Below are positions 3,352 to 46,235 of a stretch of 64,000 nt of DNA, one piece after another. Under the pieces are notes generated by a model, which was not told the DNA's origin, did no database searches, and saw only the letters and a list, made by a program, of their open reading frames with translations. The stretch's first letter is position 1; each line of letters begins with the position of its first letter. The position numbers and the translations under genes are program-made. The stretch covers positions 11,378-75,377 of the forward strand of contig JAZDMV010000002.1 in NCBI GenBank assembly GCA_043800535.1, read 5' to 3'. Origin of the DNA: a bacterium (GTDB lineage: Bacteria > Patescibacteriota > Minisyncoccia > Portnoybacterales > GWB1-42-6).

Positions 3352-3482
3352 GAAAAATTGCCGAGCGACGAGTGAAACGAGAAGTTTACGAGGCAATTTT
3401 TAGTCGAGCGAATCTGATTTTATCAAAATTTTATCGCTGCGCGTGGTCTTTTGCTACTTTTCTGCCACCAGAAAAGTAGATA
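3352..3482 (+). repeat. intergenic repeat family D copy 2 with terminal hairpin gctacttttctgccaccagaaaagtag
   Basis: Near-identical core to 1882-2010. Confidence 0.6.
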
Positions 3483-5046: not shown

Positions 5047-7350
5047 CTACAAAGCGCCTAGTATTTTCTTCTTCAATCCTTCCACATCAAATTCAGCGAA
5101 TTTATATACTTCATCCACCGCGCCGGATTTAAGGAAGCGGTCGATCCCGATAACCCGTTTCTGATAATCGCCGGGCAGAATGAAAGGGTTCAAAAACGCC
5201 GGCCAGCCATTGTGCAGAGTTATGACATACTGACGCTCTTCGTCTGGCAAAATTGAATCGGCTTTGGCCGGATCGTTCTTTTTCAGCTCTTCAAAAAGCT
5301 CGGGTGAAGTGACCGCGATAATTTTTATATCCGCATTCTGCTCCAATTCAGGCAAACTTGCCAAAACATTAGCCATCACTTGCCCGCCGCAGATGGCAAA
5401 AATAACTTTTTTCTTGCCGTTTTCCGCGAATGGCTTGTAAACATAAGCGCCATTTATTGCCTCTTTAGCAGGAGGCACTCCGTTTTCGCGTTTTAAAACC
5501 GGCGTTCCCGGCCGCATGATAGATAACGCGATCGGCTCCTGTTTTTCCATCGCATAAAACAGCATCTCAATTGTTTCATTGGCATCCATGGGTTTATAAA
5601 CTTTTATTCCCGGATAAGCGTTAAACAGCGACATCCAGAATAGCCCATGATGCGTTTCGCCGTCCTCGCCCGTTTCCGGGCCGTCGTGAGCCGCCAGCAT
5701 AATAAAAAATCCTTTACGCTTTGGGTTGACGTAATTATTGATCAACGCCATGCGCACCGAATTGGCCATAATTGAGGTAAACACGCCATATGACGCAAAG
5801 ACGCTCATTGCCTGATATCCGCCCGGCAGAATATCCTGGGTCAAACTGCTTCCCATCATAGCCATATTCTGCTCGGCAATGCCGTAGCGGAAACCGCGGC
5901 CCAAAGGATTGCTCGGACTGATAATCCCATAAACATTCTCCGCATTTTTGGTCAAAATAGAACCAGCCAGATCGCCGGAACCAACGTAGAAAAACGCTGA
6001 CTGCTTCATCATCCATTCAAAAAATGCTTCAGTCGCTTTTCTTGTGGCGATTGCTTCGCCTTCCTTGAAAACCAGTTCCGGCGGCAAAACATCCGGCCGC
6101 TTAATAGATTTATAATCAGCCATCGGCCGGTCTTTTAACACTTCCGCCATTTTTCCAGATAGCTCTTTTTCCGGCCTAATCCTTTCTTTATCAACGTTCA
6201 GGCGGTCAAATATATATTCAACATCCTCTTGAGTCAATTGAGAGATCACAACATCAATGTCTTTTTGCGTATCGCCCTCAATTCCGGGAATATCAAAGCC
6301 GATCGCTTTCATTATTTCAACGTAATCCGGATGTGCGACAGGCGCGCCGTGCGAGCCGGCCGTGCCGGCCAGCTTGCCGTAAAACTTCCCTTTGATAGTA
6401 TGGCAAATAATAACTGTGGCTTTTTTATTTCCAAACCCCTGATAGGCCTTATGATAAGCATAAGCGATCTCAAGAGGGTTATGGCCGTCAATTTCAATAA
6501 TGTTCCAGCCCGGGCCAAACCAATAATTATCAATGGGCAAGCTTATGACTTCGCCAATCGGCCCGTCTATGCCAAAATTATTATTATCAAGAGTAACGAT
6601 AATATTATCGGCGCCCATTGAAATAATGGAATTGCGCGCCTCATAACTTATTCCCTCTTCGGTTTCCGCGTCGCCCGCGATAACGTGCACTTTTGCGTCC
6701 AGCCCGTTTGATTTTTGCAAAATTGCCAAGCCAAGCCCGACAGAAAAACCATGCCCCGAAGAACCGGTTGAAGCGTCAGCCAAAGCATAACTTGATTCAA
6801 CATGGCCACTCGGGCCGTCGCAATGCCTGAAACGAGTCAGGCAAGAAGGCGTTGAATAGCCAAGCGCGTCTTTATCCAGCTTCACGCCTTTGCGCGACAT
6901 TACCTCCCAAATGAGCGCAAGCAAAGAATGTTGCAATGGCGTGCAATGCCCGGCGGACCAGACAATGCGGTCCCGGCCGGGATTTTTTGGGTCCTGCGGG
7001 TCAAAGGCAAAAATGCCGGAAAACAGCAAGCTTAATAAGATCTCAGTCTTTGAAGAAGATCCTCCCGGATGGCCAGATTTAATTCCATCCATCGCGGCAA
7101 AACTTAAACCGCGCACAACTCGCGCGATGTTTTCTATTCTAACGATATCAACTCCATCAATAGGTGCCAATTCAAGTCCTTTTAGATTTAAATAAACCCC
7201 CACACCTTCTTCTGCTTGATTATTTTTTTGGCTAGTTTCGGAACTCGCTAAGGTGTGGGGGTAAAAACCGCCTTCGGCCTGATACTGAAAGCGCTGCGGC
7301 TCCTTCTCCTTAAGCATGCCTAATTCCTTCTCATCGAGAATATTGTACAT
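5047..7350 (-). CDS. tkt: transketolase (full length, with about 80-aa N-terminal extension)
   Basis: Contains GHPGGSSS and EGISYEA segments, which I recall as transketolase TPP-binding signatures. The N-terminal extension includes an in-frame palindrome (7197-7261). Confidence 0.8.
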   Translation of the reverse strand: MYNILDEKELGMLKEKEPQRFQYQAEGGFYPHTLASSETSQKNNQAEEGVGVYLNLKGLELAPIDGVDIVRIENIARVVRGLSFAAMDGIKSGHPGGSSSKTEILLSLLFSGIFAFDPQDPKNPGRDRIVWSAGHCTPLQHSLLALIWEVMSRKGVKLDKDALGYSTPSCLTRFRHCDGPSGHVESSYALADASTGSSGHGFSVGLGLAILQKSNGLDAKVHVIAGDAETEEGISYEARNSIISMGADNIIVTLDNNNFGIDGPIGEVISLPIDNYWFGPGWNIIEIDGHNPLEIAYAYHKAYQGFGNKKATVIICHTIKGKFYGKLAGTAGSHGAPVAHPDYVEIMKAIGFDIPGIEGDTQKDIDVVISQLTQEDVEYIFDRLNVDKERIRPEKELSGKMAEVLKDRPMADYKSIKRPDVLPPELVFKEGEAIATRKATEAFFEWMMKQSAFFYVGSGDLAGSILTKNAENVYGIISPSNPLGRGFRYGIAEQNMAMMGSSLTQDILPGGYQAMSVFASYGVFTSIMANSVRMALINNYVNPKRKGFFIMLAAHDGPETGEDGETHHGLFWMSLFNAYPGIKVYKPMDANETIEMLFYAMEKQEPIALSIMRPGTPVLKRENGVPPAKEAINGAYVYKPFAENGKKKVIFAICGGQVMANVLASLPELEQNADIKIIAVTSPELFEELKKNDPAKADSILPDEERQYVITLHNGWPAFLNPFILPGDYQKRVIGIDRFLKSGAVDEVYKFAEFDVEGLKKKILGAL
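7197..7261. repeat. palindrome cccccacacctt...aaggtgtggggg lying in-frame in the tkt N-terminal extension
   Basis: 12-nt perfect inverted termini. The same cccccacac motif recurs at 50693-50760. Confidence 0.5.
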
Positions 7351-7378
7351 AAATTTAATTAATTAAAATCTTATTTTT

Positions 7379-7897
7379 TTACCAAGTGCTTCTGGCCGCT
7401 GCTGTTGAAACTTGCCAAGCCCCAGTTGGTCTAACGGGGTCATAAAAAGGATCTGTGGCTAAATACCCTGTCTCTGGCGTGCAATGAGCCAAAACTTTGT
7501 AGTCGACACCATTTGAATAATAAAGATAGCAGCAACCAGCGCCGTTGGCATTATGACCTTTTGGGTCAAGCGGCAGTTGCGCCATATACGCGGGCGCCAA
7601 ATTCGGAACATAGCCGTCGCTACCCGAAAGAGCGTGGCTTCCAAAACTATCGCATTCGCCCCACCACCCCGGCACAACCGGGTAGACGCCGCTAAAATCA
7701 TAATACATTTCCAAAGCCAGCTGAATTTGACTTAAATCCGTTTTACGCTTAGCGTCCCTCGCTTTTGCTCTGGCACTGCTAAGAGAAACCAACACAACGC
7801 CGGAAAGTAATCCTATAATCGCAATCACAACCAAAAGTTCCATCAAAGTGAACCCTTTTGTGCGGTTTTTAATTTTGATTCCAAGCCATCTTGACAT
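7379..7897 (-). CDS. type IV pilin-like protein
   Basis: [20 protein letters not shown] prepilin motif after a 15-aa leader. Confidence 0.75.
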   Translation of the reverse strand: MSRWLGIKIKNRTKGFTLMELLVVIAIIGLLSGVVLVSLSSARAKARDAKRKTDLSQIQLALEMYYDFSGVYPVVPGWWGECDSFGSHALSGSDGYVPNLAPAYMAQLPLDPKGHNANGAGCCYLYYSNGVDYKVLAHCTPETGYLATDPFYDPVRPTGAWQVSTAAARSTW

Positions 7898-7918
7898 CTT
7901 TAAATTACCGCTCAGCTC

Positions 7919-8320
7919 TTACTTTACAATAAGTTTCTGAACCTGCACTGTGCCGTTGCTCAGGCGACCGTCCACTGTCACGCGATTCCCCACGCCTAAT
8001 TTTGAAACGTTGCACACAGATTCTTTGCCCGCAATTGTGCATAAACTGCCGCCCGAAAAAACTAGTTTTGCGGTCAACGCCGCCTGGCCAGGATTTTCAT
8101 ACAATAAATACCACATTCCCCTCTCCATGCCTGGATTGTTTTTGACAAGATTTCCGGTGTGCGAAAACCCAATACTCTCTAAATTATTTGCGTTTATCGT
8201 TTCCACAAGCGGCTCTTCTGTCTGTAACCACCAGACAGCCAAAGCTGCCGCCACTGACAATATCACTATTATCACAATAGCCAGACTTATCCTTTCTTTA
8301 GCCAGGTTTCTTTTTGTCAT
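7919..8320 (-). CDS. hypothetical membrane-anchored protein
   Basis: N-terminal TM helix, then soluble domain. Lies next to pilin genes. Confidence 0.45.
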   Translation of the reverse strand: MTKRNLAKERISLAIVIIVILSVAAALAVWWLQTEEPLVETINANNLESIGFSHTGNLVKNNPGMERGMWYLLYENPGQAALTAKLVFSGGSLCTIAGKESVCNVSKLGVGNRVTVDGRLSNGTVQVQKLIVK

Positions 8321-8436
8321 TATTATTGTTATTCCTGCGGAAGCAGGAATCCAGGTTCTCCTATCTGCCTCCTGATGCTAATCTGGATTCTCGCTCCAAG
8401 CATGTCCTGCGTTTGATACAGGACTGAAATAACAAA

Positions 8437-9087
8437 TTATATTATTATATTTTTTAATTTTTCAATTGAACCTTTTATATCAGCACTTCCAAATATGGCA
8501 GAGCCGGCAACTAAAATATCGGCCCCGGAAGCAGCCGCCTTTTTTCCCGTTTCTGCATTTATCCCGCCATCCACCGCAATTTTTATATCGCTGTATTTTG
8601 AGCGCAGATCAAAGATCTTTGGCAGAACGCGTTCCGAAAAAGGATGGCCGTAATAGCCGATTTCCTGAATGCCCATCAGCTGAATAACCTGAAAATTGGG
8701 GAATTGAGAAATTGGGAAATTTTCCAAAACATTAATGGGGGTCTGAAGATTTAAAACAAGCCCCATTTCCATTCCGGCCGCTTTTAATTTTTCCGAAATT
8801 TCAGTCAGCTTTTCCGTTGACTCGTAATGAATTAAAATTCTTTTAACGCCAGAAACAATCCATCTGTCAATCTCTTTTTCGGGCTCAGAAATCATTAAAT
8901 GAACTTCAAAATTAAGCTTGGTCTCTATCTTTTTCAAATCTTCCGGATTGTCCCAGGTTTTTGTCGCTGTAAATTTGCCGTCACCAATGTCTAATTGCAC
9001 CCAATCTACATATGGTTCAACCAGCTTTATCTTTTTTTTCAGGTCATCAAAGTCCTTGGCAAGAATGGCGGGAATTATTTCAGGCAT
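8437..9087 (-). CDS. rpe: ribulose-phosphate 3-epimerase
   Basis: IPAILAKDF, HLMI and VDGGIN segments. Start placed at MPEIIPAIL. Confidence 0.75.
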   Translation of the reverse strand: MPEIIPAILAKDFDDLKKKIKLVEPYVDWVQLDIGDGKFTATKTWDNPEDLKKIETKLNFEVHLMISEPEKEIDRWIVSGVKRILIHYESTEKLTEISEKLKAAGMEMGLVLNLQTPINVLENFPISQFPNFQVIQLMGIQEIGYYGHPFSERVLPKIFDLRSKYSDIKIAVDGGINAETGKKAAASGADILVAGSAIFGSADIKGSIEKLKNIII

Positions 9088-9227
9088 AAAAATAAAAGAT
9101 TCAAATTTCAAAATCCAAATTTCAACTTCTCGACAAGCTCGAAGAATAAATTATTATTCGAGCGAAGGAGTCCCTTTAACGGGACGACTGAGTCGAGAAT
9201 TTGACATTTGAGCTTTGGATTTTTGAC

Positions 9228-9671
9228 TTAGTTTCTTTCTATGTTCTCTATCTTCTCAATCCTCCTTAAATGCCTTCCTTCCGCGACGAACTCCGTGTCC
9301 AGCCACATTTTCACCAATTTTTTGGCAATATCATCGTCCAGCACTCTGCCGCCAAGACAAATGATATTTGCATTCAAATGTTCAGCCGCGCTTCTGGCTG
9401 TAAATTCGTCATAAACCAAAGCGGCGCGGATGCCGTCAACCTTATTTGCCGTGATGCAAACGCCTTGTCCCGTGCCGCAGATCAAAATGCCTTTTGAATC
9501 TTCATTTTCAACCACATTTTGCGCCAAGCGATATGCAAAATCAGGATAATCGTCAGACGGATCAAGCTGTTCATTCCCCAGGTCCTGGACGTCAAAACCA
9601 AGCTCAACCAAATATGGCCTCAACGCTTCTTTTAACGGATATCCCGCGTGGTCCGCGGCGATGAATAGCAT
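9228..9671 (-). CDS. rpiB: ribose-5-phosphate isomerase B
   Basis: ICGTGQG motif, 150-aa LacAB/RpiB size. Start placed at MLFIAADHAGY. Confidence 0.75.
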   Translation of the reverse strand: MLFIAADHAGYPLKEALRPYLVELGFDVQDLGNEQLDPSDDYPDFAYRLAQNVVENEDSKGILICGTGQGVCITANKVDGIRAALVYDEFTARSAAEHLNANIICLGGRVLDDDIAKKLVKMWLDTEFVAEGRHLRRIEKIENIERN

Positions 9672-9716
9672 GCTAGCGATTAGCAAATAGCGACTGGCGA
9701 CTAGTCATACTAGTGG

Positions 9717-10463
9717 CTAGTTGCTAGTGGCTGACTTTTTAACTCTCCACTCTTTAATCTTCTTATGGTCTCCCGACAAAAGAACCTCCGGCACTTTCCA
9801 TCCCTTAAATTTTTCCGGCCTTGTGTACTGCGGGTATTCTAAATAGGTGACAACCGTCGACCGCTTACCGTCGACCGCCCTTGAATTTTTTTCTGACGGT
9901 TGTCGTTCGTCGGTAGTCGGTAGTCGGTTCGAGAAGCTTTCTTCATCTAACGACTCCTTTTTCCCCAAAACGCCCGGAATCAATCGGGACACCGCATCTA
10001 CCATTATCATAGCAGGGATTTCGCCGCCGGTTAAGACAAAGTTACCCACAGACACCTCTTCGTCGGCTATATACTCGGCCACCCGCTCATCCACCCCCTC
10101 ATACCGGCCGCATATCAATATCAGCTGGTCATATTTGGCCAGTCTCCGCGCGTCCGCCTGCGTGAATTGTTTGCCTTTGGCACTGAATAAAATTATCCGC
10201 CTCTTAATTTTTAATTTTTCATCTTTAACTTTTAACTTTTTTAAAGTCGCAACCGCTCTCCAAAGCGGTTCGACTTTAAAAATCATCCCCGGCCCACCCC
10301 CATACGGGCTGTCGTCAACGGTTTTGTGTTTATCGTCCGTCCATTGCCTGAGATCGTGCACGCTAATCTCCAGATGACGGGCTTCCTGCGCCCGCATCAA
10401 AATACTCTCCTTAAAATATGAGTCAAAAATTCTTGGGAAGATTGTAATAATGTCGAATTTCAT
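9717..10463 (-). CDS. trmD: tRNA (guanine37-N1)-methyltransferase, carrying an in-frame insertion of about 26 aa
   Basis: MKFDIITIFP N-terminus, GGGPGM region, and C-terminal YPQYTRP..LLSGDHKKI. The insertion RLPTTDERQPSEKNSRAVDGKRSTVV is encoded by a palindromic/direct-repeat DNA segment (9843-9925). Confidence 0.8.
   Translation of the reverse strand: MKFDIITIFPRIFDSYFKESILMRAQEARHLEISVHDLRQWTDDKHKTVDDSPYGGGPGMIFKVEPLWRAVATLKKLKVKDEKLKIKRRIILFSAKGKQFTQADARRLAKYDQLILICGRYEGVDERVAEYIADEEVSVGNFVLTGGEIPAMIMVDAVSRLIPGVLGKKESLDEESFSNRLPTTDERQPSEKNSRAVDGKRSTVVTYLEYPQYTRPEKFKGWKVPEVLLSGDHKKIKEWRVKKSATSN
9843..9925. repeat. palindromic plus direct-repeat insert inside trmD (tgacaaccgtcg...cgacggttgtc; tcggtagtcggtagtcggt)
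   Basis: Inverted 10-bp arms and tandem tcggtag units. The insert is in-frame. Confidence 0.5.
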
Positions 10464-10525
10464 TGAAATAAACAAAAACTGCGCCATCTTTATGATAGCA
10501 CAGCTTTTGTGTAATTGCGAAAATT

Positions 10526-10855
10526 TTACAGTTGAAGTTCGTCAACCACCTGGTCAACGTTTCTGGGACCCTCGCTGGGAGTTTCCTGTCGCGGAACGCG
10601 CCCGCCTTCCGGCTCTTCAATCTTGAAGTTCACGCGGGCATTGTGTTTTGCACCAATCACCCGGAGTAAAGTTCTGATTGCGCGGGCCGTCGAACCCTGT
10701 CGGCCAATCACCTGACCCATATCCTCGGGGTTGACTTTGAGCGTCAAAAGAACGCCCATTTCATCAATCTTTCGGTCGGTTTTCGCTTCGTCAGGATGGT
10801 CAACAATGCTCTTGATGATATATTCCACGAACTCTTGGTCTATATTTTTAGCCAT
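10526..10855 (-). CDS. KH-domain RNA-binding protein (YlqC/KhpA-like)
   Basis: 109 aa with a GRQG motif (VIGRQGSTARAIRTLL). Conserved position between rpsP and trmD. Confidence 0.7.
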   Translation of the reverse strand: MAKNIDQEFVEYIIKSIVDHPDEAKTDRKIDEMGVLLTLKVNPEDMGQVIGRQGSTARAIRTLLRVIGAKHNARVNFKIEEPEGGRVPRQETPSEGPRNVDQVVDELQL

Positions 10856-11172
10856 ATCTTTCTTAAAATCAATGAGGCATTACTGATATTCGTAGTTCGA
10901 CCTTCAAAGCATACCTGCTTGAGTGCTACTACGTTATTCACTATTATCCGCCGTTGGAATAGATAAGTCAACCCCGTTAGAGATTTTCAACGTTTTGCCA
11001 TTTTTCACCGAACTAAGCCGAAGGCGAGTTCGCTTGATGAGAATTGAACTACCAGGCAACTTTATTGAATCTCTAACGGGGTCAAGATTTTTTGTAAACT
11101 AAAAGCCCCGACCGTTTTCGCGACAGGGCTCGTTTCTTATCAAGCTTTATAAAATTATTTCTGGGTCGGCTC

Positions 11173-11637
11173 TTACTCTTTTTGTTCCGGTTCAACCGAC
11201 TCTTCATTCTCCTCAATCGATTCTTCCTTTTTCTCTTCCTGCGCTGGCTCGACTGCAGGCTCGTTATTTTCCGCGACTGCGGCTGGCTCTGCTTCTGGCG
11301 CTTTTTCCGCCTTCGCTAAAGCTTCGGCGGACACGTCCGCTTTTGGTGTTCCGGCGGCGACACCTTCTCTCTTTTTTGGCCGCCAGGCCTTAACCTTCTC
11401 GCCCTTGATCACATCCGAACTAATCAACAAATTATTCACTGTCGGCGAGCATTTTGCGCCTTTGCTCATCCAATATAAAATCCGCTCTTGTTTAAAAGAT
11501 TTGCTTTTGAGCTTTGGATTATAAAACCCCAATTCCTCAAGGAATTTACCCTTAACGGGATTTGAGCTTTCTGTAACCACCAGCCGAAAGCTGGGATCAT
11601 TCCTCCTGCCGCGTCTTGTTAATCTTATTACTAACAT
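11173..11637 (-). CDS. rpsP: 30S ribosomal protein S16 with acidic C-terminal extension
   Basis: MLVIRLTRRGRRNDPSFRLVVT N-terminus. Confidence 0.85.
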   Translation of the reverse strand: MLVIRLTRRGRRNDPSFRLVVTESSNPVKGKFLEELGFYNPKLKSKSFKQERILYWMSKGAKCSPTVNNLLISSDVIKGEKVKAWRPKKREGVAAGTPKADVSAEALAKAEKAPEAEPAAVAENNEPAVEPAQEEKKEESIEENEESVEPEQKE

Positions 11638-11664
11638 TGTTTTTTATTGTTATCTGTTATCTAC

Positions 11665-12378
11665 CTATTGTCCATTCCATCCCTTCTTCTTCAGCCCATT
11701 TTCCGCCGCTTTTTGCTGGGCCTCCTGCTTGGAAGGCCCTTCGCCTTCGGCCACCAATTCTTCGTCCAGAAACACACCGACTTTAAAATGCTTGGAGTGG
11801 TCCGGTCCCCATTCGGCCATAACTTCATAACTTGGCGTCACGCCTACCCTTTCCTGCGACTCTTCCTGAAACTTGCTTTTGGCGTCTCGGTAGCTTCCCT
11901 GCTCCAATATCGTAGGCAGAAGGACTAAAACATTTTTATTCACAAACTCTGTTGCCTTATCCATCCCCTGGTCGTAATAAATCGCGCCGATCAACGCTTC
12001 AAGTGCGTTGGCCAAAATATAATTTCTGGCGCGTCCGTTATCTTTGGCCTCTCCGCGGCTAAGCATCACATGGCTGTTTAAGTCAAGCTCAAGAGCAATT
12101 TCGGCCAAGGTTTTTGCGTTAACCAGCGCCGCCCGCCAATTGGTCAGCTCGCCTTCAGGGTTTGGGTAATTGCGGTAAAGATATTCCGTCACCGCCAACT
12201 CCAGCACCGCGTCACCCAAAAATTCCAGCCGTTCATTTTGGCCGACGGCAAAATCTGGATTCTCGTTCAAGTATGAACGGTGCACTAAGGCCTGCTGAAG
12301 CAACTTCTCGTCGTTAAACTTGATACCGATCTTTTTCTCAAAACTTGCTAAGTCACTCATCTCTAAGTCAAAAATCAA
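11665..12378 (-). CDS. rnc: ribonuclease III
   Basis: ERLEFLGDAVLEL catalytic signature, C-terminal dsRBD. Confidence 0.85.
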   Translation of the reverse strand: MIFDLEMSDLASFEKKIGIKFNDEKLLQQALVHRSYLNENPDFAVGQNERLEFLGDAVLELAVTEYLYRNYPNPEGELTNWRAALVNAKTLAEIALELDLNSHVMLSRGEAKDNGRARNYILANALEALIGAIYYDQGMDKATEFVNKNVLVLLPTILEQGSYRDAKSKFQEESQERVGVTPSYEVMAEWGPDHSKHFKVGVFLDEELVAEGEGPSKQEAQQKAAENGLKKKGWNGQ

Positions 12379-12476
12379 AAGTCAAAAGTCAAAATTGCAG
12401 GTCAAAATTAAAAAGTATTTGAACTTTAAAACTTTTAGCTTGAACTTTTGGCTTTTGAGTTTTGAATTTTTAAAGA
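12379..12476. promoter_or_regulatory. about 100-bp AT-rich imperfect hairpin immediately upstream of rnc
   Basis: tcaaaagtcaaaagtcaaaa... mirrored by ...ttttgacttttgagttttga. Candidate RNase III autoregulatory or processing stem. Confidence 0.4.
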
Positions 12477-12914
12477 TTACTCGTCTTTCTGCGGCTCGCC
12501 GATCTCCCGATAAATCGTCCCTAAGACTCCGTTGATAAATTTGCCGCTTGACTCTCCGCCAAAACTTTTAGCCAGCTCAATGGATTCATTAATGGCGACT
12601 TTAGGCGGCACTTCTTTTCTGTCGCCAAAAAGCAGTTCATATAGCCCAAGCCGCAGGATATTTCTATCAACTATGGTTATTTGTTCAATCGGCCATTCGG
12701 GAGCAGATTTTGAAATTATTTTGTCCAATTTTACCAGATTTTCTACTACGCCTTTAACAAGCCGCTCAATAAATTCAACCGAATCCAAACCAGGGCCGAA
12801 CTCCTTGATGTTGCGGCTGATTATTTCCTTTAACTGCGAATTGTCTTTGCCGGCAAAATCCCATTCATAAAGGGACTGCATGGCAATGGAACGGGAAAGA
12901 TGTCTGTTAGCCAA
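12477..12914 (-). CDS. nusB: transcription antitermination factor NusB
   Basis: [13 protein letters not shown] NusB signature. Confidence 0.8.
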
Positions 12915-12972
12915 TTTATCAATTTCCTGATTTCCAGATTGCCTAATGTCGGAAGCCAGGACATTATGATAT

Positions 12973-13251
12973 TTATTTTACGCTAAGACTTTCCATGCTC
13001 GTTTCTTTTTTCGTTTCTTTCTCCTGCTCTGCCATCTCCTTTTCCTTGTCGCGCCGCTCTTTTTTGGTCAGTTTCTTCAACACATCAATAACTTCTTTTC
13101 CTTTAAAAGTTCCACAATTTAGGCAAGTCCGGTGCGGCAGAACGCTCTTCCCACACTTCGGGCACACGCCCAAGATCTGCGCTTTTAGAGCGTGGTGCGA
13201 ACGCCTTCTGTTCCTCCGCGATTTTGTATGTCTCTGTTTCGGTACCGGCAT
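12973..13251 (-). CDS. rpmF: 50S ribosomal protein L32 with Lys/Glu-rich C-terminal tail
   Basis: [23 protein letters not shown] plus CPKCG..C zinc ribbon. Confidence 0.8.
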
Positions 13252-13293
13252 ATTCTGAATTTTTGCGGTCAAATTAAAAATGACACCACAATT

Positions 13294-13376
13294 GTGTCAT
13301 CCCGAGCCCCGTAACTGGACGAGGCAACCTTATTTCAGAATCTCGCTTCGGGACTCTAAAATAAGACTAGAATGAC
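13294..13376. repeat. palindromic repeat family B copy (gtcatcccgagc...ctagaatgac)
   Basis: Terminal inverted motifs resemble the family. Intergenic position. Confidence 0.4.
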
Positions 13377-13477
13377 TTTACTTCGCAGTATAGCAGACAA
13401 TTTTACTCCTGACAAGAGATGACAAAGCCCGCATAACCAAAAAGGCCAACGGGCTATTTTTTCTTACTGTCTTTTTG

Positions 13478-13789
13478 CTATCTGTTAAACCAGATCCACT
13501 TCATTCCAATAAACTCTTCGTAGTCGGGTAAAAAATCGTCATAATTCAAGTCAAGCCCCAGGCGGATGTTTTCATCTGCCAACGTAAAAATCACATCATA
13601 GCATCCGGAGCTCTTGTCAAAACGATGCCGTAATCTGGTTATTTTACCTGATATCTGATAACCATATAACTCATTTATTAGGCAATTGGGCGTAGCCGTG
13701 CAAAAATATTCTTCTTCAACCATCTTCCAAAATTCGTCTTTGGTTATCATAGGCCCTCCTTTTTGAATTAAAGAACTTCGGTGCGTCAA
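13478..13789 (-). CDS. hypothetical protein
   Basis: Intact ORF. No recognised motif. Confidence 0.4.
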   Translation of the reverse strand: MTHRSSLIQKGGPMITKDEFWKMVEEEYFCTATPNCLINELYGYQISGKITRLRHRFDKSSGCYDVIFTLADENIRLGLDLNYDDFLPDYEEFIGMKWIWFNR

Positions 13790-13814
13790 GATATAACAAA
13801 TTTTATTCCTAAAA

Positions 13815-14435
13815 TCAACCCTTGCCTGTTTTTAAATTTTTAACAGGCCTGAAACTTCGGCGGTGAATTTTACACGGTCCGTGTTTTTTTATGGCTTCAA
13901 TATGCGATTTAGTTCCATAGCCCTTGTGCTTTTCAAATCCGTATTGCGGGTATTTTTTGGCGTAACGGCACATTATGCGGTCTCGCGTCACTTTGGCAAT
14001 AATTGAGGCGGCGGCGCAGGAAAAAATTTTTTCGTCGCCCCTGATAACTGCCTTCTGGCCGAAGGCCAGGCCGCGAATTGTAAAATTCCCGTCTAAAAGC
14101 AAATAGTCCGGTTCTGTTTTCAAACAAACTATCGCTTTTTTCATAGCCAGCTTCGTCGCCTCAAATATGTTGATCTGGTCAATTATTCTGTGCGAAACAA
14201 TGCCTACTCCCCATTTAATATCGGGATGCCTCGTCAAAATTTTATACCATTCTTCCCGCTGCCTCGCCGTCAATTTCTTTGAGTCGCGTATTGTATGAAA
14301 TAACTCCCCCTCGCCCCCTCTTAATTTAAGAGGGGGGTGGGGGGCGTTATAATTATTTACCGTGACAGACACCGCCCCTGCCACGACCGGCCCGGCCAAG
14401 GGCCCCCTCCCAGCCTCGTCCAAACCGACAACCAT
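13815..14435 (-). CDS. rnhB: ribonuclease HII with in-frame palindromic insert
   Basis: MVVGLDEAGRGPLAGPVV N-terminus. Insert NNYNAPHPPLKLRGGEGELF is encoded by palindrome cccctcttaatttaagagggg (about 14315-14336). Confidence 0.75.
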   Translation of the reverse strand: MVVGLDEAGRGPLAGPVVAGAVSVTVNNYNAPHPPLKLRGGEGELFHTIRDSKKLTARQREEWYKILTRHPDIKWGVGIVSHRIIDQINIFEATKLAMKKAIVCLKTEPDYLLLDGNFTIRGLAFGQKAVIRGDEKIFSCAAASIIAKVTRDRIMCRYAKKYPQYGFEKHKGYGTKSHIEAIKKHGPCKIHRRSFRPVKNLKTGKG

Positions 14436-14570
14436 CTTCGCTCCTTTTCGCCACAACTGCCTCTCTTCATTAAAATTCGGAAAATTTTTAATCCTTGATC
14501 TTCGTTTTTTATTTTTCATCTTTTTATCCTGAGTTTATCGAAGGACTATCTTTTATTTTACCACGCGGGC

Positions 14571-15342: not shown

Positions 15343-15425
15343 AGTGAGACGAGGCCTAGAATTTATCAAAATTTTATGGCTGGCGAGAGCTTTTTGGCTA
15401 CTTTTTGTCGACACAAAAAGTAGCT
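15343..15425 (+). repeat. repeat family D copy 3 (partial) with hairpin gctactttttgtcgacacaaaaagtagc
   Basis: Matches the tail of copies 1 and 2. Confidence 0.55.
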
Positions 15426-21671: not shown

Positions 21672-22850
21672 ATGAAATATTACATAATTACATATGGCTG
21701 TCAAATGAATGAAAGCGATTCTGAAAAGATCGTTGTTTTATTGCAGCGCCAGGGCCACAGACCCGCAAAATCAGAAGCTGACGCCAATTTGATCGTTCTT
21801 AACGCCTGTTCTGTGCGTCAGGCCGCCATGCATCGCGTCTACAGTAAAATAAATCAATATTCGGGTAAAAAGAAGGTAATTCTAGCCGGCTGCGTTTTGC
21901 AAAAAGACAAAAACGCGTTAAAGGAAAAAGTCAGCGAAATTTGGCATCCGGACAGCTATTTTGAATGCCCCTCAGTGTCATTGCGAAGCGCGCCGCCAGC
22001 TGGCGGCGCGCTGAAGCAATCCCGCACTAATACCTCCGTCCACGGGATTGCCACGCTCCCTCCGGTCGCTCGCAATGACGCGACGCCCGCCTATGTGCCC
22101 ATAATGACCGGCTGCAACAATTTTTGTTCTTATTGCGCCGTGCCTTACACGAGAGGACGGGAAAGATCACGGCCGGCGGACGAAATTATTGCCGAAGTAA
22201 AGGCGCTGGTAAAAAAAGGCCATAAAGAAATAATGCTGTTGGGACAAAACGTGAATTCGTATAAATCAAACAGCGTGTCATTGCGAGGAGCCACGTCTCC
22301 TGCGGGGCGACGCGGCGATCCCGACCGTTTACCGCCGTCCACGGGATTGCTTCGCTCCGCTCGCAATGACGTTAATTTTGCAGTTTTACTCAAAATCATC
22401 AACTCCCTCCCCGGCAATTTCCGTCTATCCTTTATGACCTCCCACCCCAAAGACATGTCGGACAAGCTTATTGCAACGATGGCCAAATGTGAAAAATTGG
22501 CAAAAAATCTGCACCTGCCAATTCAATCCGGCGACAATACAATTTTGCGCAAGATGAACCGACATTACACCACAAATCATTATCTGATACTGCTCAAAAA
22601 AATCCGCAAAGCGATTCCTGATATAAAAATTTCAACCGACATAATCGTCGGCTTCCCGGGCGAAACAAAAAAACAATTCCAAAGCACTGTCGCGCTGGCC
22701 AAAAAAGCCAAGTTTTCGGGCGCGTTTGTTGCCAAATATTCCCCGCGCCCCGGCACCGCCGCCGCCAAACTGAAAGACAATGTACCAGTTGAAGAAAAAA
22801 AACGACGTTGGCGGATTTTAGACACGTTGATTAATAAATTCGAGCATTAA
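21672..22850 (+). CDS. miaB: MiaB/RimO-family radical-SAM methylthiotransferase with two in-frame repeat-derived insertions
   Basis: MKYYIITYGCQMNESDSEKI MTTase N-domain, CNNFCSYCAVPYTRG radical-SAM cluster, TRAM end. Inserts SVSLRSAPPAGG... and SVSLRGATSPAGRRGD... are encoded by elements at 21975-22080 and 22275-22370. Confidence 0.8.
   Translation: MKYYIITYGCQMNESDSEKIVVLLQRQGHRPAKSEADANLIVLNACSVRQAAMHRVYSKINQYSGKKKVILAGCVLQKDKNALKEKVSEIWHPDSYFECPSVSLRSAPPAGGALKQSRTNTSVHGIATLPPVARNDATPAYVPIMTGCNNFCSYCAVPYTRGRERSRPADEIIAEVKALVKKGHKEIMLLGQNVNSYKSNSVSLRGATSPAGRRGDPDRLPPSTGLLRSARNDVNFAVLLKIINSLPGNFRLSFMTSHPKDMSDKLIATMAKCEKLAKNLHLPIQSGDNTILRKMNRHYTTNHYLILLKKIRKAIPDIKISTDIIVGFPGETKKQFQSTVALAKKAKFSGAFVAKYSPRPGTAAAKLKDNVPVEEKKRRWRILDTLINKFEH
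21975..22080. repeat. palindromic element family A copy 1, in-frame inside miaB (gtgtcattgcga...ctcgcaatgacg)
   Basis: Terminal inverted repeats. Shares ccgtccacgggattgc with copy 2. Confidence 0.7.
22275..22370. repeat. palindromic element family A copy 2, in-frame inside miaB
   Basis: gtgtcattgcgaggag ... gctcgcaatgacg. Confidence 0.7.
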
Positions 22851-23353: not shown

Positions 23354-24337
23354 ATGCTAGATAATAATTGTCAAGATAAAGATGCTCCAAAGCTAATCGT
23401 CGTTCTCGGCCCGACTGCTTCCGGCAAGTCGGATTTAGCTGTGGAAATCGCCCACAAATTCAATGGCGAGATTATTTCCGCTGATTCGCGGCAGGTTTAT
23501 CGCGGAATGGATATTGGGACCGGCAAAATTACAAAAAAAGAGATGCAAGGTGTTCCTCATTATCTGCTGGATGTCGCTGACCCAAAACGCCGCTTTACTG
23601 TCGCCCAATACAAAAAATTAGCGCTGGCCGCAATAAAAAAGATACAACGCAAAAATAAAATCCCGATTATCTGCGGCGGGACGGGGTTTTATATTCAGGC
23701 GCTAGTTGATAATATTTCTATCCCAGAAGTCAAGCCGGATTTGAAACTTCGCACGCGCCTGGAAAAAAAATCTGTCGGAGAACTATTCTCCGAGCTGAAG
23801 TGGCTTGACCCAAAACGCGCCAAAACAATAGACCCCAAAAATCCCCGCCGACTCATCCGCGCGCTTGAAATTATTTATAAAACCGGCAAACCTGTGCCGC
23901 CGTTAAATCCTCCCCGCCCCTCCCTAAAGGGAGGGAGTCCCCCTCCTTTAGGAGGGGCTAGGGGAGATTTTTCTACCCTCTTCATCGGCGTCAAAAAATC
24001 GCCGCATCAACTACGGCGATTGATTTATAAACGCCTGCTCAAACGATTGCGGCAAGGCATGATAGAAGAAGTCAAAAACTTGCGTAAATCTGGCATCTCC
24101 TGGAAACGGCTGGAAGACTTTGGCCTGGAATATCGATACACCGCTAAATATTTACAGAAAAAAACCCTTCGACAAGCTCAGGGTAAATTATACTATCAAG
24201 AAATGGTTTCGCGTCTCCAAAAAGAAATTGAGCATTACGCCAAAAGGCAGATGACGTGGTTCAAAAAAAATCCAAGAATAAAATGGATAGAAAGCGAAAC
24301 TCAAGCGCAAAAATTAGTAAAAAAATTCATAGAATAA
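23354..24337 (+). CDS. miaA: tRNA dimethylallyltransferase with in-frame palindromic insert
   Basis: IVVLGPTASGKSDLAVEIA P-loop; SADSRQVYRGMDIGTGK. Insert PPRPSLKGGSPPPLGGARGD is encoded by cccctccctaaagggaggg/ccccctcctttaggagggg (about 23910-23975). Confidence 0.8.
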   Translation: MLDNNCQDKDAPKLIVVLGPTASGKSDLAVEIAHKFNGEIISADSRQVYRGMDIGTGKITKKEMQGVPHYLLDVADPKRRFTVAQYKKLALAAIKKIQRKNKIPIICGGTGFYIQALVDNISIPEVKPDLKLRTRLEKKSVGELFSELKWLDPKRAKTIDPKNPRRLIRALEIIYKTGKPVPPLNPPRPSLKGGSPPPLGGARGDFSTLFIGVKKSPHQLRRLIYKRLLKRLRQGMIEEVKNLRKSGISWKRLEDFGLEYRYTAKYLQKKTLRQAQGKLYYQEMVSRLQKEIEHYAKRQMTWFKKNPRIKWIESETQAQKLVKKFIE

Positions 24338-30565: not shown

Positions 30566-30724
30566 ACCATTTTACTATCACATTGAGCACCCCGCCCTCT
30601 ATGCCATTTGATAGATTACGGATATTTTTTTGATAATTACCTTATTTGAGATTTTTAAAACTATCCAACAGCTTAGAGGGCGGGGTAAAGGTTTTGTTAT
30701 CCCGCTTAGCGGGAACAAAGCCCT
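30566..30724. repeat. repeat family C copy 1 (attgagcaccccgccctcta ... tagagggcggggtaaaggttt ... cccgcttagcgggaa)
   Basis: Terminal inverted repeats. Second copy at 36139-36300. Confidence 0.55.
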
Positions 30725-31068: not shown

Positions 31069-32172
31069 TTAAGATTCAGTCAAAATTTTATCAATTCTCG
31101 CCTTAATTTTATGCCCCTGACAATGTTTCAATATCCCAAAATATGACTGCAAGGTTTGACCAAAAGACGCTTCAGAGATCAGACCCGTCCGCAAACCTTG
31201 CCGCCTATTTATCATCTTCTTCAGTATTCTCTTTTTAGTTTTTGTCCGCAAAACCCGATAATACGGCAAAACTACATAGCCAAGAAAGTCAATCCCCTGA
31301 CGATACTTTCTGATTATTATTTTATCAGGATGTAAAGTTAATTTCAATCTTTCTTCAAGAAAATCGCTGATCAGCGGAATCAATCCGTTTAAATATTCTT
31401 CGTTTTCGCCCAAAATCACAAAATCATCGCAATAACGCAAATAGTATTTTTCTCTTAATCCGTGCTTAACAAATTGGTCAAGCTCGTTCAAATAGATATT
31501 GGCAAATAGCTGGCTGGTGACATTGCCAAGAGGCAAACCCTTGTTAGGCGATTTTTCAAAGCTTTTGATTATTGCTTCAATCAGCCATAAAATATTTTTC
31601 TCTTTGACTTTCTGCCTGACTAATTCCAACAAAATTTCATGATCAACTGAATCAAAAAACTTTCTAATATCGCATTTTAAAGCAAAAAGATCTTTTGTGT
31701 TATTTTGGCTTAATTTTCCGGCGAATTTTTCCAGTCGGCTGACTGCCCGATGTGTGCCCTTGCCCAAACGGCAAGAATATGAATCAAAGATAAAACTTTT
31801 ATCAAAAATTGGATACAAAACTCTAAATACGGCGTGGTGCAAAACTCTGTCGCGTACGCAAGCTTTGTGAATCCGCCTTGGCTTTGGGTCACATATTGAA
31901 AACGCGGTATAATGGGAGTGACAATAAGCTTTCGCTTTTAATTCATGATGGAGCTTGAATAAATTATCCTCTAAATTAAATTCAAATTCCTGAACGTCCG
32001 GTTTATTGCCTTTGCCTCGCTTAAATTCCCGCCAGGCCAAAAACAAATTTTCCAGCGAAATTATTTGCTCAAAAACTTTCCATCCTTCGGATGGTCGCCC
32101 GAAGGGCAATAACTTTTCACTTTTAACTTTAAACTCATGACTTATAACGCCCCCCCCCAGCGGGTTCAACAA
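31069..32172 (-). CDS. diversity-generating retroelement reverse transcriptase
   Basis: RT motifs: SICDPKPRRIHKACVRDRVLHHAV (motifs 1-2), LPLGNVTSQLFANIYLNELD (an SQ-type motif 4 that I recall as typical of DGR RTs), RYCDDFVILG (YxDD). Cognate TR/VR lie adjacent. The start may instead be a TTG about 60 nt downstream; a G9 tract lies at codons 6-8. Confidence 0.85.
   Translation of the reverse strand: MLNPLGGGVISHEFKVKSEKLLPFGRPSEGWKVFEQIISLENLFLAWREFKRGKGNKPDVQEFEFNLEDNLFKLHHELKAKAYCHSHYTAFSICDPKPRRIHKACVRDRVLHHAVFRVLYPIFDKSFIFDSYSCRLGKGTHRAVSRLEKFAGKLSQNNTKDLFALKCDIRKFFDSVDHEILLELVRQKVKEKNILWLIEAIIKSFEKSPNKGLPLGNVTSQLFANIYLNELDQFVKHGLREKYYLRYCDDFVILGENEEYLNGLIPLISDFLEERLKLTLHPDKIIIRKYRQGIDFLGYVVLPYYRVLRTKTKKRILKKMINRRQGLRTGLISEASFGQTLQSYFGILKHCQGHKIKARIDKILTES
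32150..32158. repeat. C9/G9 homopolymer at the RT 5' end / avd-RT divergent promoter
   Basis: acgc ccccccccc agcgg. The only run of this length I noticed in the window. Confidence 0.8.
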
Positions 32173-32188
32173 GTTTGAAGTCCCTGTT

Positions 32189-32506
32189 TTGCATAGAATT
32201 TTTGAGCTGTATAAATTATTTCACAAATGCCTGATATTATTCCCAAAACAAGAAAAATATACGCTGGGACAAAAAATAGAAAATACGATTTTGGAAACAC
32301 TTGAGCTAACCCTATCGGCAAGCTATTCTAATATCTACAAAAAGGAAATTCTAACAAAAGCAAATAATAAAGTTGACCTTTTGAAATATCTAATCCGGCT
32401 TTCCCACGAGACAGATTCTGTCAAAATCAAAAGTTGTCTGACGCTGGAAGAAATAATCATTGAAATCGGAAAAATGATTGGCGGCTGGCGGCGTTCTCTC
32501 AAATAA
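32189..32506 (+). CDS. avd: Avd-like accessory protein (four-helix-bundle family)
   Basis: 105 aa. LYKLFHKCLILFPKQEKYTLGQKIE and C-terminal EIGKMIGGWRRSLK resemble the FPK.EKY ... EIGKML.GLIKSLK pattern of PF05635/Avd proteins. Divergent from the RT, which is unusual. Confidence 0.65.
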   Translation: MHRIFELYKLFHKCLILFPKQEKYTLGQKIENTILETLELTLSASYSNIYKKEILTKANNKVDLLKYLIRLSHETDSVKIKSCLTLEEIIIEIGKMIGGWRRSLK

Positions 32507-32523
32507 AATTGGCTTTAACTTTG

Positions 32524-32554
32524 AAAAGAAGCCCCGTGTCTTACGGGGCTTCTT
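32524..32554. terminator. perfect hairpin gaagccccgtgtcttacggggcttc between avd and TR
   Basis: 9-bp stem. Terminator for avd. Confidence 0.5.
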
Positions 32555-32571
32555 TGACTATACTTAGCACT

Positions 32572-32691
32572 ACCGACAAACAAAAGACCGGAAGAATAGT
32601 TGTCGTTCGCGTTGCCCAGATTGCCCCTGTTGTCAAAGTTGAGCCTGTCATCATTGGCCTTGAAGTTAAGCGAATAGTCCGACGACTGTCA
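32572..32691 (-). repeat. DGR template repeat (TR), sense strand = minus
   Basis: 120 bp nearly identical to 32943-33062. Sense strand is Asn-codon rich: QSSDYSLNFKANDDRLNFDNRGNLGNANDNYSSGLLFVGS. Every mismatch to VR is at a TR adenine. Confidence 0.85.
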
Positions 32692-32886
32692 ATAATTTGT
32701 TCTTTCCCGCCCCAAGCCACCAGAAGAGCATAAACTGCGCTTCTTGTATTTTATTCGGTCCCGGCTGGACCATAGAAAAGGACAAGGAGTGCTATAAATA
32801 TATTCGGCGACCTTGATTTGTTAAAAACCAAGATACATTAGCCTACGAATTTATTATACCAAAAAAATAAAAAGGGCGTAACGTGA

Positions 32887-32916
32887 TACTCATCGTTACG
32901 CCCTTGCAAAGATTCA
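32887..32916. other. 10-bp-stem hairpin gggcgtaacg-N10-cgttacgccc about 25 bp downstream of VR
   Basis: Position matches the DGR hairpin/cruciform reported to promote mutagenic homing. Also serves as the target-gene terminator. Confidence 0.5.
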
Positions 32917-32935
32917 AAGATCAAGGGACAAAGAA

Positions 32936-33898
32936 TCAACTCCCGACAAACAAAAGACCGGAAGAATAGCTGCCGCTCGCGCCGCCCAGATTGCCCCTGC
33001 TGCCAAAGTAGAGCCCGCCATCATCGGCCACGAAGCAAAGCGAATAGTCCGACGACTGCCAACTTAAAGCCGATAAATCCAATCCTGGCGTGTACCAATC
33101 TCTGGCAAGGACATCTGGATACATCGCCAGTGCGATGGCCGTGTCAAAGCCGCCAGCCATCAGTAAAGATTCCGGAAGATGGAATAATTGTTCCCGGCTT
33201 GCCAGAACAGAAAACCCTTGCAAGGGGTTAGGGAAATAAATCGCGACTACATAGCTCTTTATCATATTAAAAACGAGTTTCTCATGCCGCGTTCCTTCCA
33301 CGATACCCACCTTGCCCTCCAGCTCGTTTTCCCGGTAACTATAAAACTTCCTGCCGGGAAATTGTTTCTCGAAAGAAAATTTAACGGCCGGCAGAAAAAT
33401 CCGTTCCAGGGCCCGACCATAGTCCTCAATGCTTTCCAGCTTCGGCAGGATAATCGGCAGATAAACGCCATTGAGTAAATTGACAATCTTTTTGTTGTCT
33501 TTAATTTGGCCAATCAGCTCGTTGGCTCTGCCTTCGAATTCAGCAACTGACATAAATAGGCCGGGCTTGAAAGCTTCCTGAAAATAGACAAGCCGATTTG
33601 CATAACCATCAATGGTATTCAAGCTCGGCTGGACAAGATAAAATTTCTTGTCCGGATCGCAAACCGCGTTTTTCAAGCCCTTTGCCGGAATTACGCGGCC
33701 GTTTTTGTCCGCGAGCTTCGAAACTCTTTCAATGAGTTTAACTTCAAGCTCGTCCCTCAAAAGTGCATCAAGCTTCTCTTCGTCGCCACCGCAAACCTTG
33801 CTTAAAATAGCGACAATCTGGCCCCCGGTTCGTCCTCTCAAAATTTCTAAAGAGCTTCCCATATCACACCTCCTGGTTTTGAGCTTTTTATTGCCCAA
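32936..33898 (-). CDS. DGR target protein (320 aa) with C-terminal variable region
   Basis: C-terminus ...WQSSDYSLCFVADDGGLYFGSRGNLGGASGSYSSGLLFVGS overlaps VR. No signal peptide seen. Fold unassigned. Confidence 0.7.
   Translation of the reverse strand: MGNKKLKTRRCDMGSSLEILRGRTGGQIVAILSKVCGGDEEKLDALLRDELEVKLIERVSKLADKNGRVIPAKGLKNAVCDPDKKFYLVQPSLNTIDGYANRLVYFQEAFKPGLFMSVAEFEGRANELIGQIKDNKKIVNLLNGVYLPIILPKLESIEDYGRALERIFLPAVKFSFEKQFPGRKFYSYRENELEGKVGIVEGTRHEKLVFNMIKSYVVAIYFPNPLQGFSVLASREQLFHLPESLLMAGGFDTAIALAMYPDVLARDWYTPGLDLSALSWQSSDYSLCFVADDGGLYFGSRGNLGGASGSYSSGLLFVGS
32943..33062 (-). repeat. DGR variable repeat (VR) encoding the last 40 codons of the target gene
   Basis: 16 mismatches to TR counted by eye, all at TR sense-strand A positions (A->G about 13, A->T about 3). 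The 3'-terminal about 27 nt are identical (IMH-like). Confidence 0.85.
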
Positions 33899-36138: not shown

Positions 36139-36300
36139 CGAATAAATTTTTAGCTACAACATTGAGCACCCCGCCATCTAAGCTGTCGGATAATTTATTA
36201 AGAATTTGAGTTTCTAATTCTTCTATAGACCCCCGTCGGTTTATTAGACAGCATAGAAGACGGGGTAAAGGTTTTCTTGCTAAATTTTCGGCTCCCGCTT
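36139..36300. repeat. repeat family C copy 2
   Basis: attgagcaccccgccatctaag ... gaagacggggtaaaggttttcttgc ... ggctcccgcttcgcgggatt. Parallels 30566-30724. Confidence 0.55.
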
Positions 36301-39477: not shown

Positions 39478-39603
39478 ATCATTGCGAGCAAAGCGAAACA
39501 ATCCCGTAGTTTTTGCTACATGCCACGGAATTGTCTCCCTTCGGGGGATCTCTCGAAGGGAGACCGCGTCGCCCCGATTAAGTCGGGACTCCTCGCAATG
39601 ACG
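39478..39603. repeat. palindromic element family A copy 4 (tcattgcgagcaaagcg...ctcctcgcaatgacg) upstream of pheS
   Basis: Complete terminal inverted repeats. Internal ggagaccgcg/gtctccc hairpin shared with copy 3. Confidence 0.65.
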
Positions 39604-44063: not shown

Positions 44064-44138
44064 AATAACCAATAACCAAGACACAATAATCAAACAGATT
44101 CCATTGGTTATTGTTTTTTGATTATTGGAGCTTTAAAA

Positions 44139-46161: not shown

Positions 46162-46235
46162 TAAAGATTTAAGAATATAGATTTAAGATTTAAGAATAAA
46201 TTCATAATTCCTAAATCGTAAATCTTAAATCTAAA
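46162..46235. promoter_or_regulatory. AT-rich about 75-bp palindrome between gatC and gatA
   Basis: agatttaagatttaagaa ... ttcttaaatcttaaatct. Confidence 0.4.

Follow-up and report, generated by a model that had tools for sequence, protein, structure and literature searches.

The stretch of DNA analysed here comprises 64,000 nt (hereafter the window) of contig JAZDMV010000002.1 from the genome of an uncultured, groundwater-type bacterium of the Portnoybacterales; it has 45% G+C, is ~85% coding, and its closest protein relatives carry the names Candidatus Portnoybacteria, Parcubacteria, or Patescibacteria. Four of its housekeeping genes contain palindromes that are read in frame as extra peptides. 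These are tkt (5047-7350, minus strand), for a transketolase of 767 aa with Pfam domains Transketolase_N, Transket_pyr, and Transketolase_C_1; trmD (9717-10487, minus strand), for tRNA m1G37 methyltransferase (Pfam tRNA_m1G_MT; E = 2e-61 to TrmD in the PDB), from whose open reading frame (ORF) the NCBI protein P0001 begins at M9; rnhB (13815-14519, minus strand), for RNase HII (Pfam RNase_HII, with PDB RNase HII matches); and miaA (23354-24337, plus strand), for tRNA dimethylallyltransferase (Pfam IPPT, with PDB MiaA matches). By Pfam and PDB comparison all four host genes are ordinary. The gene string in this part of the window runs rnhB ... L32, nusB, rnc, S16, KH, trmD, rpiB, rpe, a pilin-like gene, and tkt, and the order from rnhB to tkt is kept in relatives L146, L148, L151, and L001 (loci of relatives are cited by such numbers throughout).

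A preliminary description of this stretch had reported palindrome-encoded insertions in these genes. By reading of the sequence, all four palindromes are present as reported, and the peptides they encode are YPHTLASS... (tkt), RLPTTDERQ... (trmD), PPLKLRGGEGE (rnhB), and SLKGGSPPPLGG (miaA). Each insert is in frame, a multiple of 3 nt in length, and free of stops. Alignment to PDB orthologues or relatives showed that the inserts are extra in all four proteins and missing from all solved-structure orthologues; nor are they conserved segments of the protein families, as many relatives with 60-75% identity are without them. It is thus confirmed that all four palindromes lie inside intact genes and are extra with respect to solved-structure orthologues and many close relatives. 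In AlphaFold models, the TrmD and RNase HII inserts map to a loop or linker with a low predicted local distance difference test score (pLDDT).

Perfect inverted repeats, counted with loops of up to 100 nt and compared with 100 dinucleotide shuffles, are strongly enriched: the window holds 47 with a stem of at least 10 bp versus 9.05 +/- 2.6 in the shuffles, and 12 with a stem of at least 13 bp versus 0.20. RNA folding gave z-scores of -4.0 for tkt, -2.5 for trmD, -4.9 for rnhB, and -4.4 for miaA. The 10-bp stem of trmD is by itself within chance expectation, and we count this hairpin as real because it is part of an extended hairpin that is conserved in six relatives. The density of such insertions, which had been described as unusual, is indeed so: inserts in a MiaB-like gene, a second segment in trmD, and palindromes in pheS and pheT add cases, bringing the total to roughly ten candidate events in 64 kb. 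The four palindromes fall into at least three unrelated classes.

The element in tkt (7193-7265) has the clearest architecture. Its core (7197-7261, 65 nt) has 13-bp terminal inverted repeats beginning CCCCCACACCTT, and the perfect inverted repeat at 7196-7262 consists of 13-bp arms ACCCCCACACCTT / AAGGTGTGGGGGT around a 41-nt loop. TAAA flanks the element at 7193-7196 and again at 7262-7265, giving a net insertion of 69 nt (65 nt plus a 4-nt TTTA duplication) that encodes YPHTLASSETSQKNNQAEEGVGV. DNA alignment showed the empty site in L146 and L148, GGCGGTTTTTA|TTTGAAT, and the filled site in the window reads GGCGGTTTTTA followed by the element (CCCCCACACC...GGTGTGGGGGTTTA) and TTTAAAT. The preliminary description had taken the palindrome to account for an N-terminal extension of the transketolase. 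The palindrome is real; the extension (MYNILDEKEL...EGGF|YLNLKG), however, is conserved, being common to syntenic L146 and L148, both minus exactly 23 residues, so that the palindrome is a 69-nt insertion inside the extension and not its source. For the 70 residues at the N-terminus, the PDB offers no counterpart.

Sister copies of this class (class A) share CCCCCACAC or CCCCGTTAGA ends, and there are four copies within the window. Besides the one in tkt, they lie at 50602-50702 (terminal repeat CCCCCACACC, a duplicated TAAA, and an overlap with the beginning of a pilin-like gene), at 50748-50860 (ends CCCCCACACTTATTCC / GGAATAAGTGTGGAGG, TTTA duplication), and, as a related intergenic copy between the S16 and KH-domain genes, at 10972-11081 (terminal inverted repeat CCCCGTTAGAGATT, TCAA duplication). 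The CCCCGTTAGA... end type is found in this last copy (TCAA), in L079 (TTGA), and in L101 (TTTA). Relatives also carry copies in frame within genes: rpe of L150 (4158-4191) holds a minimal copy of 26+4 nt that encodes NPHTSGGVGV with a TTTA/TAAA duplication, for which rpe of the window is the empty site (ATAAAAAT), and trmD of L101 (2263-2338) holds a copy of 68+4 nt in its C-terminal domain, also with a TTTA/TAAA duplication. Class A copies have only their 10-13-bp ends in common; the interiors, of 2 to ~90 nt, are unrelated. Survival of class A copies inside genes would be explained in part by their G+C-only ends, which cannot encode stops in any frame.

These are the marks of a MITE (miniature inverted-repeat transposable element): terminal inverted repeats, perfect over 13 bp, occur in the tkt class, and target-site duplications with empty sites in relatives occur in the tkt class only. 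From its sequence, the tkt element thus appears to be miniature-transposon-like, having the features that define MITEs apart from a transposase, and its transposition is well supported. With a 4-bp duplication and ends starting with CC, the element may resemble IS1380-type ends. Viral-contig scans did not find the tkt-type pattern. The sole transposase-related signal in the window is a 152-residue ORF (62757-63215) that corresponds to an IS1595-type zinc-ribbon fragment. We also observed that core plus 4 bp comes to 69, 114, 105, and 117 nt for the elements at 7197-7261, 10972-11081, 50602-50702, and 50748-50860, all multiples of three, copies without clear coding included; a sample of four is too small to judge. 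At 50560-50874, where two class A elements lie over the start of the pilin-like gene, one ORF spans both without a stop, and the right arm of the element at 50602-50702 seems to code for the pilin-like leader MQRHGHKSMVWG|FTLLEL.

The element in trmD is built differently. The 78-nt (26-codon) insertion (9846-9923, minus strand) lies in the interdomain linker of TrmD, where PDB orthologues are contiguous: every solved TrmD aligns as two contiguous blocks, with query residues 188 and 215 split by 26 extra residues. It forms a long imperfect hairpin whose arms are made of 7-nt tandem units (CGACTAC / GTCGACG...) and whose central loop contains GAATTC; the perfect stem within it has 10-bp arms GACAACCGTC / GACGGTTGTC (9849-9858 / 9895-9904), and Tandem Repeats Finder (TRF) reports CGGTAGT x4.6 at 9897-9928. 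In six relatives (65-79% protein identity) an insert with identical boundaries forms this same long, imperfect hairpin, in which each heptamer usually has one mismatch. The AlphaFold model has a confident core, while residues 175-224, i.e., linker and insert, have pLDDT <50 and no secondary structure. In other lineages the linker holds other heptamer-derived peptides (e.g., KFKIQNSKF, KFEIRNS, and KLEIGNW). In TrmD this linker comes after the acidic catalytic residue in the (D/E)SF motif and becomes ordered upon tRNA binding; tolerance of 26 extra residues three positions further on would therefore be notable. A metagenome scan with the TrmD alignment gave relatives of at most 64% identity among the matches listed, and these served as a CPR (Candidate Phyla Radiation) background set and not as a source of empty sites. 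Look-ups of the window's exact TrmD protein yielded no record.

A second site in TrmD carries a period-7 array, TTAATTT x5.3, at 10204-10240 (minus strand; TRF), encoding KKLKVKDEKLKIK. It is hypervariable among 40 relatives, which have other repeat-derived peptides there. A 12-bp palindrome at 10238-10282 of trmD was dropped as an insertion, as it spans conserved codons (FKVEP...ATLKK).

Hairpins of other heptamers also stand between genes, at 9095-9238, 12365-12470, 44064-44127, 46164-46236, and 46526-46595. Over the window as a whole, period 7 dominates the repeat spectrum (also at 9100-9125), with a different heptamer at each locus. Taken over ~1 Mb of CPR-type loci, period-7 arrays called by TRF number 153 per Mb versus 22 per Mb in non-CPR loci (about 7 times) and are five-fold commoner than arrays of period 6, 8, or 9. 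An inverted partner lies within 150 nt of 34% of the period-7 arrays versus 1.5% of random segments, and 57% of the arrays fall within long ORFs versus 86% of random segments. Some 25 canonical heptamers occur more than once. The diversity of the heptamer units argues against a single master copy.

In rnhB, a nested C-rich/G-rich hairpin occupies 14300-14350 (minus strand) as an imperfect 25-nt inverted repeat with a folding energy of -32.9 kcal/mol; an inner 11-bp stem at 14314-14336 is enclosed by outer stems ATAAC.CCCCC / GGGGG.GTTAT. The insert, which codes for NAPHPPLKLRGGEGELF in the stretch separating strand beta-2 from the DSK motif, gives RNase HII ~17 extra residues relative to T. 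maritima and 13 relative to the shortest close relatives. Among 32 relatives compared, this insert is found in the window only. Other sequences occupy the same site: ...IPAFAGMT in the 72%-identical P0242 (L155) and in L146, a KFKIQ-type heptamer repeat in L001, QFPISNFQF in some relatives, and nothing in others. The AlphaFold model (mean pLDDT 85.5) places the insert in a loop of pLDDT 56-63 (residues 53-78) that is coil without secondary structure. A genome-collection scan with RNase HII returned relatives at no more than 50% identity, of which one, L001, is syntenic.

The miaA element (23905-23970, plus strand), which like that of rnhB is nested and has its C-rich arm ahead of the G-rich one, forms a three-helix hairpin with a folding energy of -45 kcal/mol, in which an outer stem (CCTCCCC / GGGGAG) encloses two inner hairpins of 8 bp each (23918-23935 and 23940-23957). 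It encodes NPPRPSLKGGSPPPLGGARGD in the loop after KTGKPVP, ~16 residues more than in insert-free relatives. L153, L154, and L206 carry the same three-helix element at this position, with a spacer whose length differs in 3-nt steps; in the arms of L206, 7/21 pairs are altered on both sides with pairing retained. The site is empty in L152 and several other relatives, and across relatives as a whole no fewer than five types of insert occur there. The 18-nt inner palindrome also turned up across many unrelated phage contigs whose GC content varies widely, and we set this match aside as a generic hairpin that is uninformative on the CPR element. Further along MiaA, at 24164-24190 (residues about 271-279), a second small extra, TLRQAQGKL, is missing from most relatives and is encoded by a weak palindrome (ACCCT...AGGGT).

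Repeats of other kinds are found in the same genes of relatives: L146 and L151 (in rpe and rnhB) and many TrmD and MiaA relatives have in-frame inserts from GC-rich palindromes, with the recurring signatures CHPxLDxGSR, ...IPAFAGMT, VIPAKAGIQ, CHPELVSGS...MPKQVRHD, and LRGNDK.

To weigh what is conserved in the inserts, identity was considered by codon position. In the miaA insert it is 0.86-0.91 at position 3 and 0.89-0.95 at positions 1 and 2, whereas outside the insert it is 0.39-0.44 at position 3 and about 0.77 at positions 1 and 2. In the trmD insert (excluding the closest pair, L151 and L001) the values are 0.56-0.77 at position 3 and 0.63-0.78 at positions 1 and 2, versus 0.41-0.60 and 0.79-0.88, respectively, outside it. 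Within the trmD insert conservation is about equal over codon positions, whereas the remainder of the gene shows the usual contrast. The pattern is the opposite of that expected from amino-acid selection, the nucleic acid being kept and the peptide not. It would fit equally well if the structure were selected, if the palindrome maintained itself, or if other copies homogenised it. As they are common to a sub-clade of relatives, the trmD and miaA inserts are old or maintained and not private to this genome. The peptides are passengers at permissive, low-confidence loops, where relatives have either nothing or quite different repeat families.

We therefore propose, with a probability of roughly 70%, that short hairpin repeats of at least three unrelated classes entered essential genes and persist there by passing three filters, their peptides being carried along as passengers. 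Several repeat classes would insert, or arise, throughout Portnoybacteria-like genomes, and copies that disrupt genes would be purged; those that survive would be of a length that is a multiple of three, have no stop in the host frame, and lie where a surface loop or linker can accommodate additional residues. The ribosome would read through such inserts to give flexible peptides with a high content of Pro, Gly, Ser, or charged residues. That loops look like 'hot spots' probably reflects, in the main, the lethality and purging of insertions at other places. A transposase encoded outside the window would have mobilised the tkt-type element in trans, and the trmD, rnhB, and miaA hairpins may have spread or been maintained by transposition, by gene conversion from copy to copy, or by self-correction of the palindrome.

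Several points weigh against this proposal. No transposase with matching ends was found among the ORFs of the window or the fetched loci of relatives. Flanking duplications were not found at the trmD, rnhB, and miaA elements; in a direct hairpin scan of ~1 Mb of related loci the exact rnhB and miaA sequences had no second copy, and their outer stems, though present, are candidate transposon ends at most. The heptamer hairpins all differ in unit, a poor fit to copy-and-paste of a master element. The tkt and rnhB inserts are seen in this assembly only. The strong nucleotide conservation of the miaA element concerns one fixed site in hosts whose synonymous sites are near saturation, and it could equally mean functional constraint. 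Finally, translation of the inserts is predicted from the integrity of the reading frames.

One alternative reading is that the hairpins are selected functional structures in the mRNA or DNA of essential genes, with the peptide as the price paid; possible roles would include processing by RNase III or other enzymes, stabilisation of mRNA, translational pausing at domain boundaries, and protein binding. The third-position identity of the miaA insert (against about 0.4 elsewhere in the gene), the retention of its three-helix architecture in four relatives with variation mostly in linkers and spacer, its two-sided changes, the retention of the trmD hairpin in six relatives, and the position of that insert exactly at the interdomain linker all agree with such a function, and repetitive extragenic palindromic (REP) sequences have been considered as RNA elements in the literature (PMC3733652). 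However, many close relatives have no insert or an unrelated sequence at these sites, so that no essential function is tied to the site; the two-sided changes come mostly from one sequence and from shifts in register; and palindromes are able to maintain themselves without selection. Moreover, an Rfam search of the window brought only three tRNAs to the gathering score and matched the hairpins to no curated covariance model, and the tkt element is clearly a recent insertion of the transposon type. We consider a functional origin of this kind quite unlikely. A broader version, in which Patescibacteria keep hairpins in essential genes genome-wide as a system and not as junk that is put up with, whether through a selected function or through an undescribed generator that would build inverted arrays from any 7-nt unit without copying a master element, draws on the near-identity of the miaA element at synonymous sites in otherwise saturated hosts, the pairing-preserving changes in both of its arms, and the diversity of the heptamer hairpins; it seems to us unlikely. 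It is a real possibility, albeit one we lean against, that the trmD, rnhB, and miaA palindromes were made locally, slippage giving rise to 7-nt arrays and template switching or fold-back to the inverted copy. The excess of period-7 arrays in CPR-type loci over non-CPR loci and over periods 6, 8, and 9, the frequency of inverted partners nearby, units so diverse that no single master copy accounts for them, and the lack of flanking duplications speak in favour of this. Against this, the identical boundaries of the trmD insert in six relatives imply that it arose once or was transferred, the widespread ...IPAFAGMT and VIPAKAGIQ families in the same loops show that import does happen there, and the tkt element is left unexplained.

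That the inserts are adaptive features of the proteins (surface loops, interaction motifs, or flexible linkers under amino-acid selection) might be argued from their position in exposed loops and linkers of intact essential enzymes and from the persistence of the trmD and miaA inserts over a sub-clade, but the codon-position pattern is contrary to selection at the protein level, the segments are of low complexity and low pLDDT, close relatives hold unrelated peptides or none at the same sites, and the tkt-type element yields xPHT...GVGV in unrelated proteins; this explanation is very improbable. We give still less credence to an artefact or mis-annotation, under which the palindromes would stem from chimeric assembly, fall beyond the genuine coding sequence, or be skipped by bypass or lost by splicing. 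Palindromes can be amplification chimeras, and those of tkt and rnhB are seen in this assembly only; yet the inserts of miaA and trmD are also present in independent JGI, ENA, and NCBI assemblies, sisters of the tkt class that share its ends and duplication occur in other assemblies, and the conserved transketolase N-terminus upstream of the insert means that translation starts upstream of it. Neither bypass nor splicing would require inserts to be multiples of 3 nt and free of stops, and inteins, introns, and programmed ribosomal bypass (of the T4 gene 60 byp type) were rejected on insert size, in-frame status, and the lack of stops.

The window contains further repeats. The MiaB-like gene (21672-22850) has in-frame inserts of ~31 and ~38 residues at 21972-22090 and 22270-22380, with GTCATTGCGAG / CTCGCAATGAC arms that resemble CGTC-tagged repeats, and relatives of 328-330 aa are without them. 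In pheS and pheT, GTCTCCCTTCGGGAGA palindromes are candidate cases: related double palindromes of the form GTCTCCCTT(T/C)GGGAGATCTCCCGAAGGGAGAC lie at 37915-37946 (pheT) and 39533-39564 (pheS), the latter in an N-terminal region without counterpart in solved structures. A ~130-bp repeat with CCCCGCC...GGCGGGG occurs at 30570-30713 and 36149-36293, just upstream of minus-strand nusG and gyrB; its copies share flanks beyond the inverted repeat, and it may be a promoter, a 5' untranslated region element, or another repeat family. Intergenic palindromes at 1978-2005, 3454-3479, and 15397-15424 have the form G(Y)TACTTTTT..N4..AAAAAGTA(R)C with GTAG/CTAC in their ends and may be REP-like or terminator-like. 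Finally, a complete diversity-generating retroelement spans 31069-33898, with a reverse transcriptase at 31069-32172 (minus strand), a template repeat at 32569-32692, and a variable repeat at 32939-33062 at the 3' end of the ORF 32936-33898; 16/17 differences between template and variable repeat fall at template adenines. A link between its reverse transcriptase and the palindromes was considered and rejected, as this is an ordinary element of its kind with its own template and variable repeats.

CPR genomes are tiny and streamlined, so translated repeat DNA in their core enzymes is unexpected. If the invasion of essential genes by hairpin repeats proves general, it would account for much of the length variation and many of the 'low-complexity' inserts of CPR proteins, and it would be a caution, for annotation and structure prediction alike, that these segments are passengers at the nucleotide level. 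The occurrence of different repeat families at the same site would also amount to a natural map of insertion-tolerant loops in essential enzymes.

Intragenic MITEs have been described in Coxiella (PMC5896051). The tkt element and its sisters resemble MITEs in their terminal inverted repeats, target duplication, small size, noncoding nature, occurrence as four copies in the window, and empty sites, and differ in that neither a parent insertion sequence nor a transposase turned up in the window and that their interiors are unrelated; the rnhB, miaA, and trmD elements lack the duplications. The period-7 arrays recall the short tandemly repeated repetitive (STRR) sequences of heterocystous cyanobacteria, both being arrays of 7-nt units that are strongly over-represented genome-wide. 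The arrays described here differ in that many pair with an inverted copy and so give hairpins, that they occur in Patescibacteria, and that some would be translated within genes. STRR repeats have been mentioned as fingerprinting targets (PMC5088731).

Among GTAG- and CGTC-tagged REPs, intragenic copies have been reported by Di Nocera et al. (2013, PMC3733652) for Opitutus, Thauera, and R. conorii. They are comparable as short stem-loops within genes of known proteins, encoding ~20-30 residues and often arranged as dimers (PMC3733652), and the VIPAKAGIQ and ...IPAFAGMT inserts in the rnhB, miaA, and trmD loops of relatives fit their design of CGTC-ATTCCCGC-N4-GCGGGAAT-CCA. The elements of the window differ: by inspection, those in tkt, rnhB, and miaA have no GTAG or CGTC end tag, none of the four has a CGTC tag, and the GTAG of trmD lies within the heptamer CGGTAGT and not at an end. 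No gene for a REP-associated tyrosine transposase (RAYT) is present in the window. In the literature searched, nothing specific was found on in-frame palindromes in CPR/Patescibacteria or on the peptides AFAGMT, PAKAGIQ, or RGNDK.

Among the closest precedents are also the Rickettsia palindromic elements (RPEs; Ogata et al., 2000, 2002), in-frame palindromic repeats of the 'selfish DNA in genes' kind which we consider here as they are summarised in PMC10969869. To the extent of that summary, the likeness lies in palindromic repeats placed in frame in unrelated housekeeping genes of a bacterium with a small genome, in translated extra segments at positions compatible with the fold, as is the case here, and in the presence of several families per genome. 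The differences, on the same description, are that the present hosts are Patescibacteria and not Rickettsiales, that RPEs measure ~100-150 bp and the present elements 26-113 nt, that the two are not known to be related in sequence, and that here one class has a clear 4-bp target duplication and another is made of 7-nt tandem repeats. Setting RPEs beside these elements by description, we suggest that the same logic may operate here in a new lineage and with new architectures.

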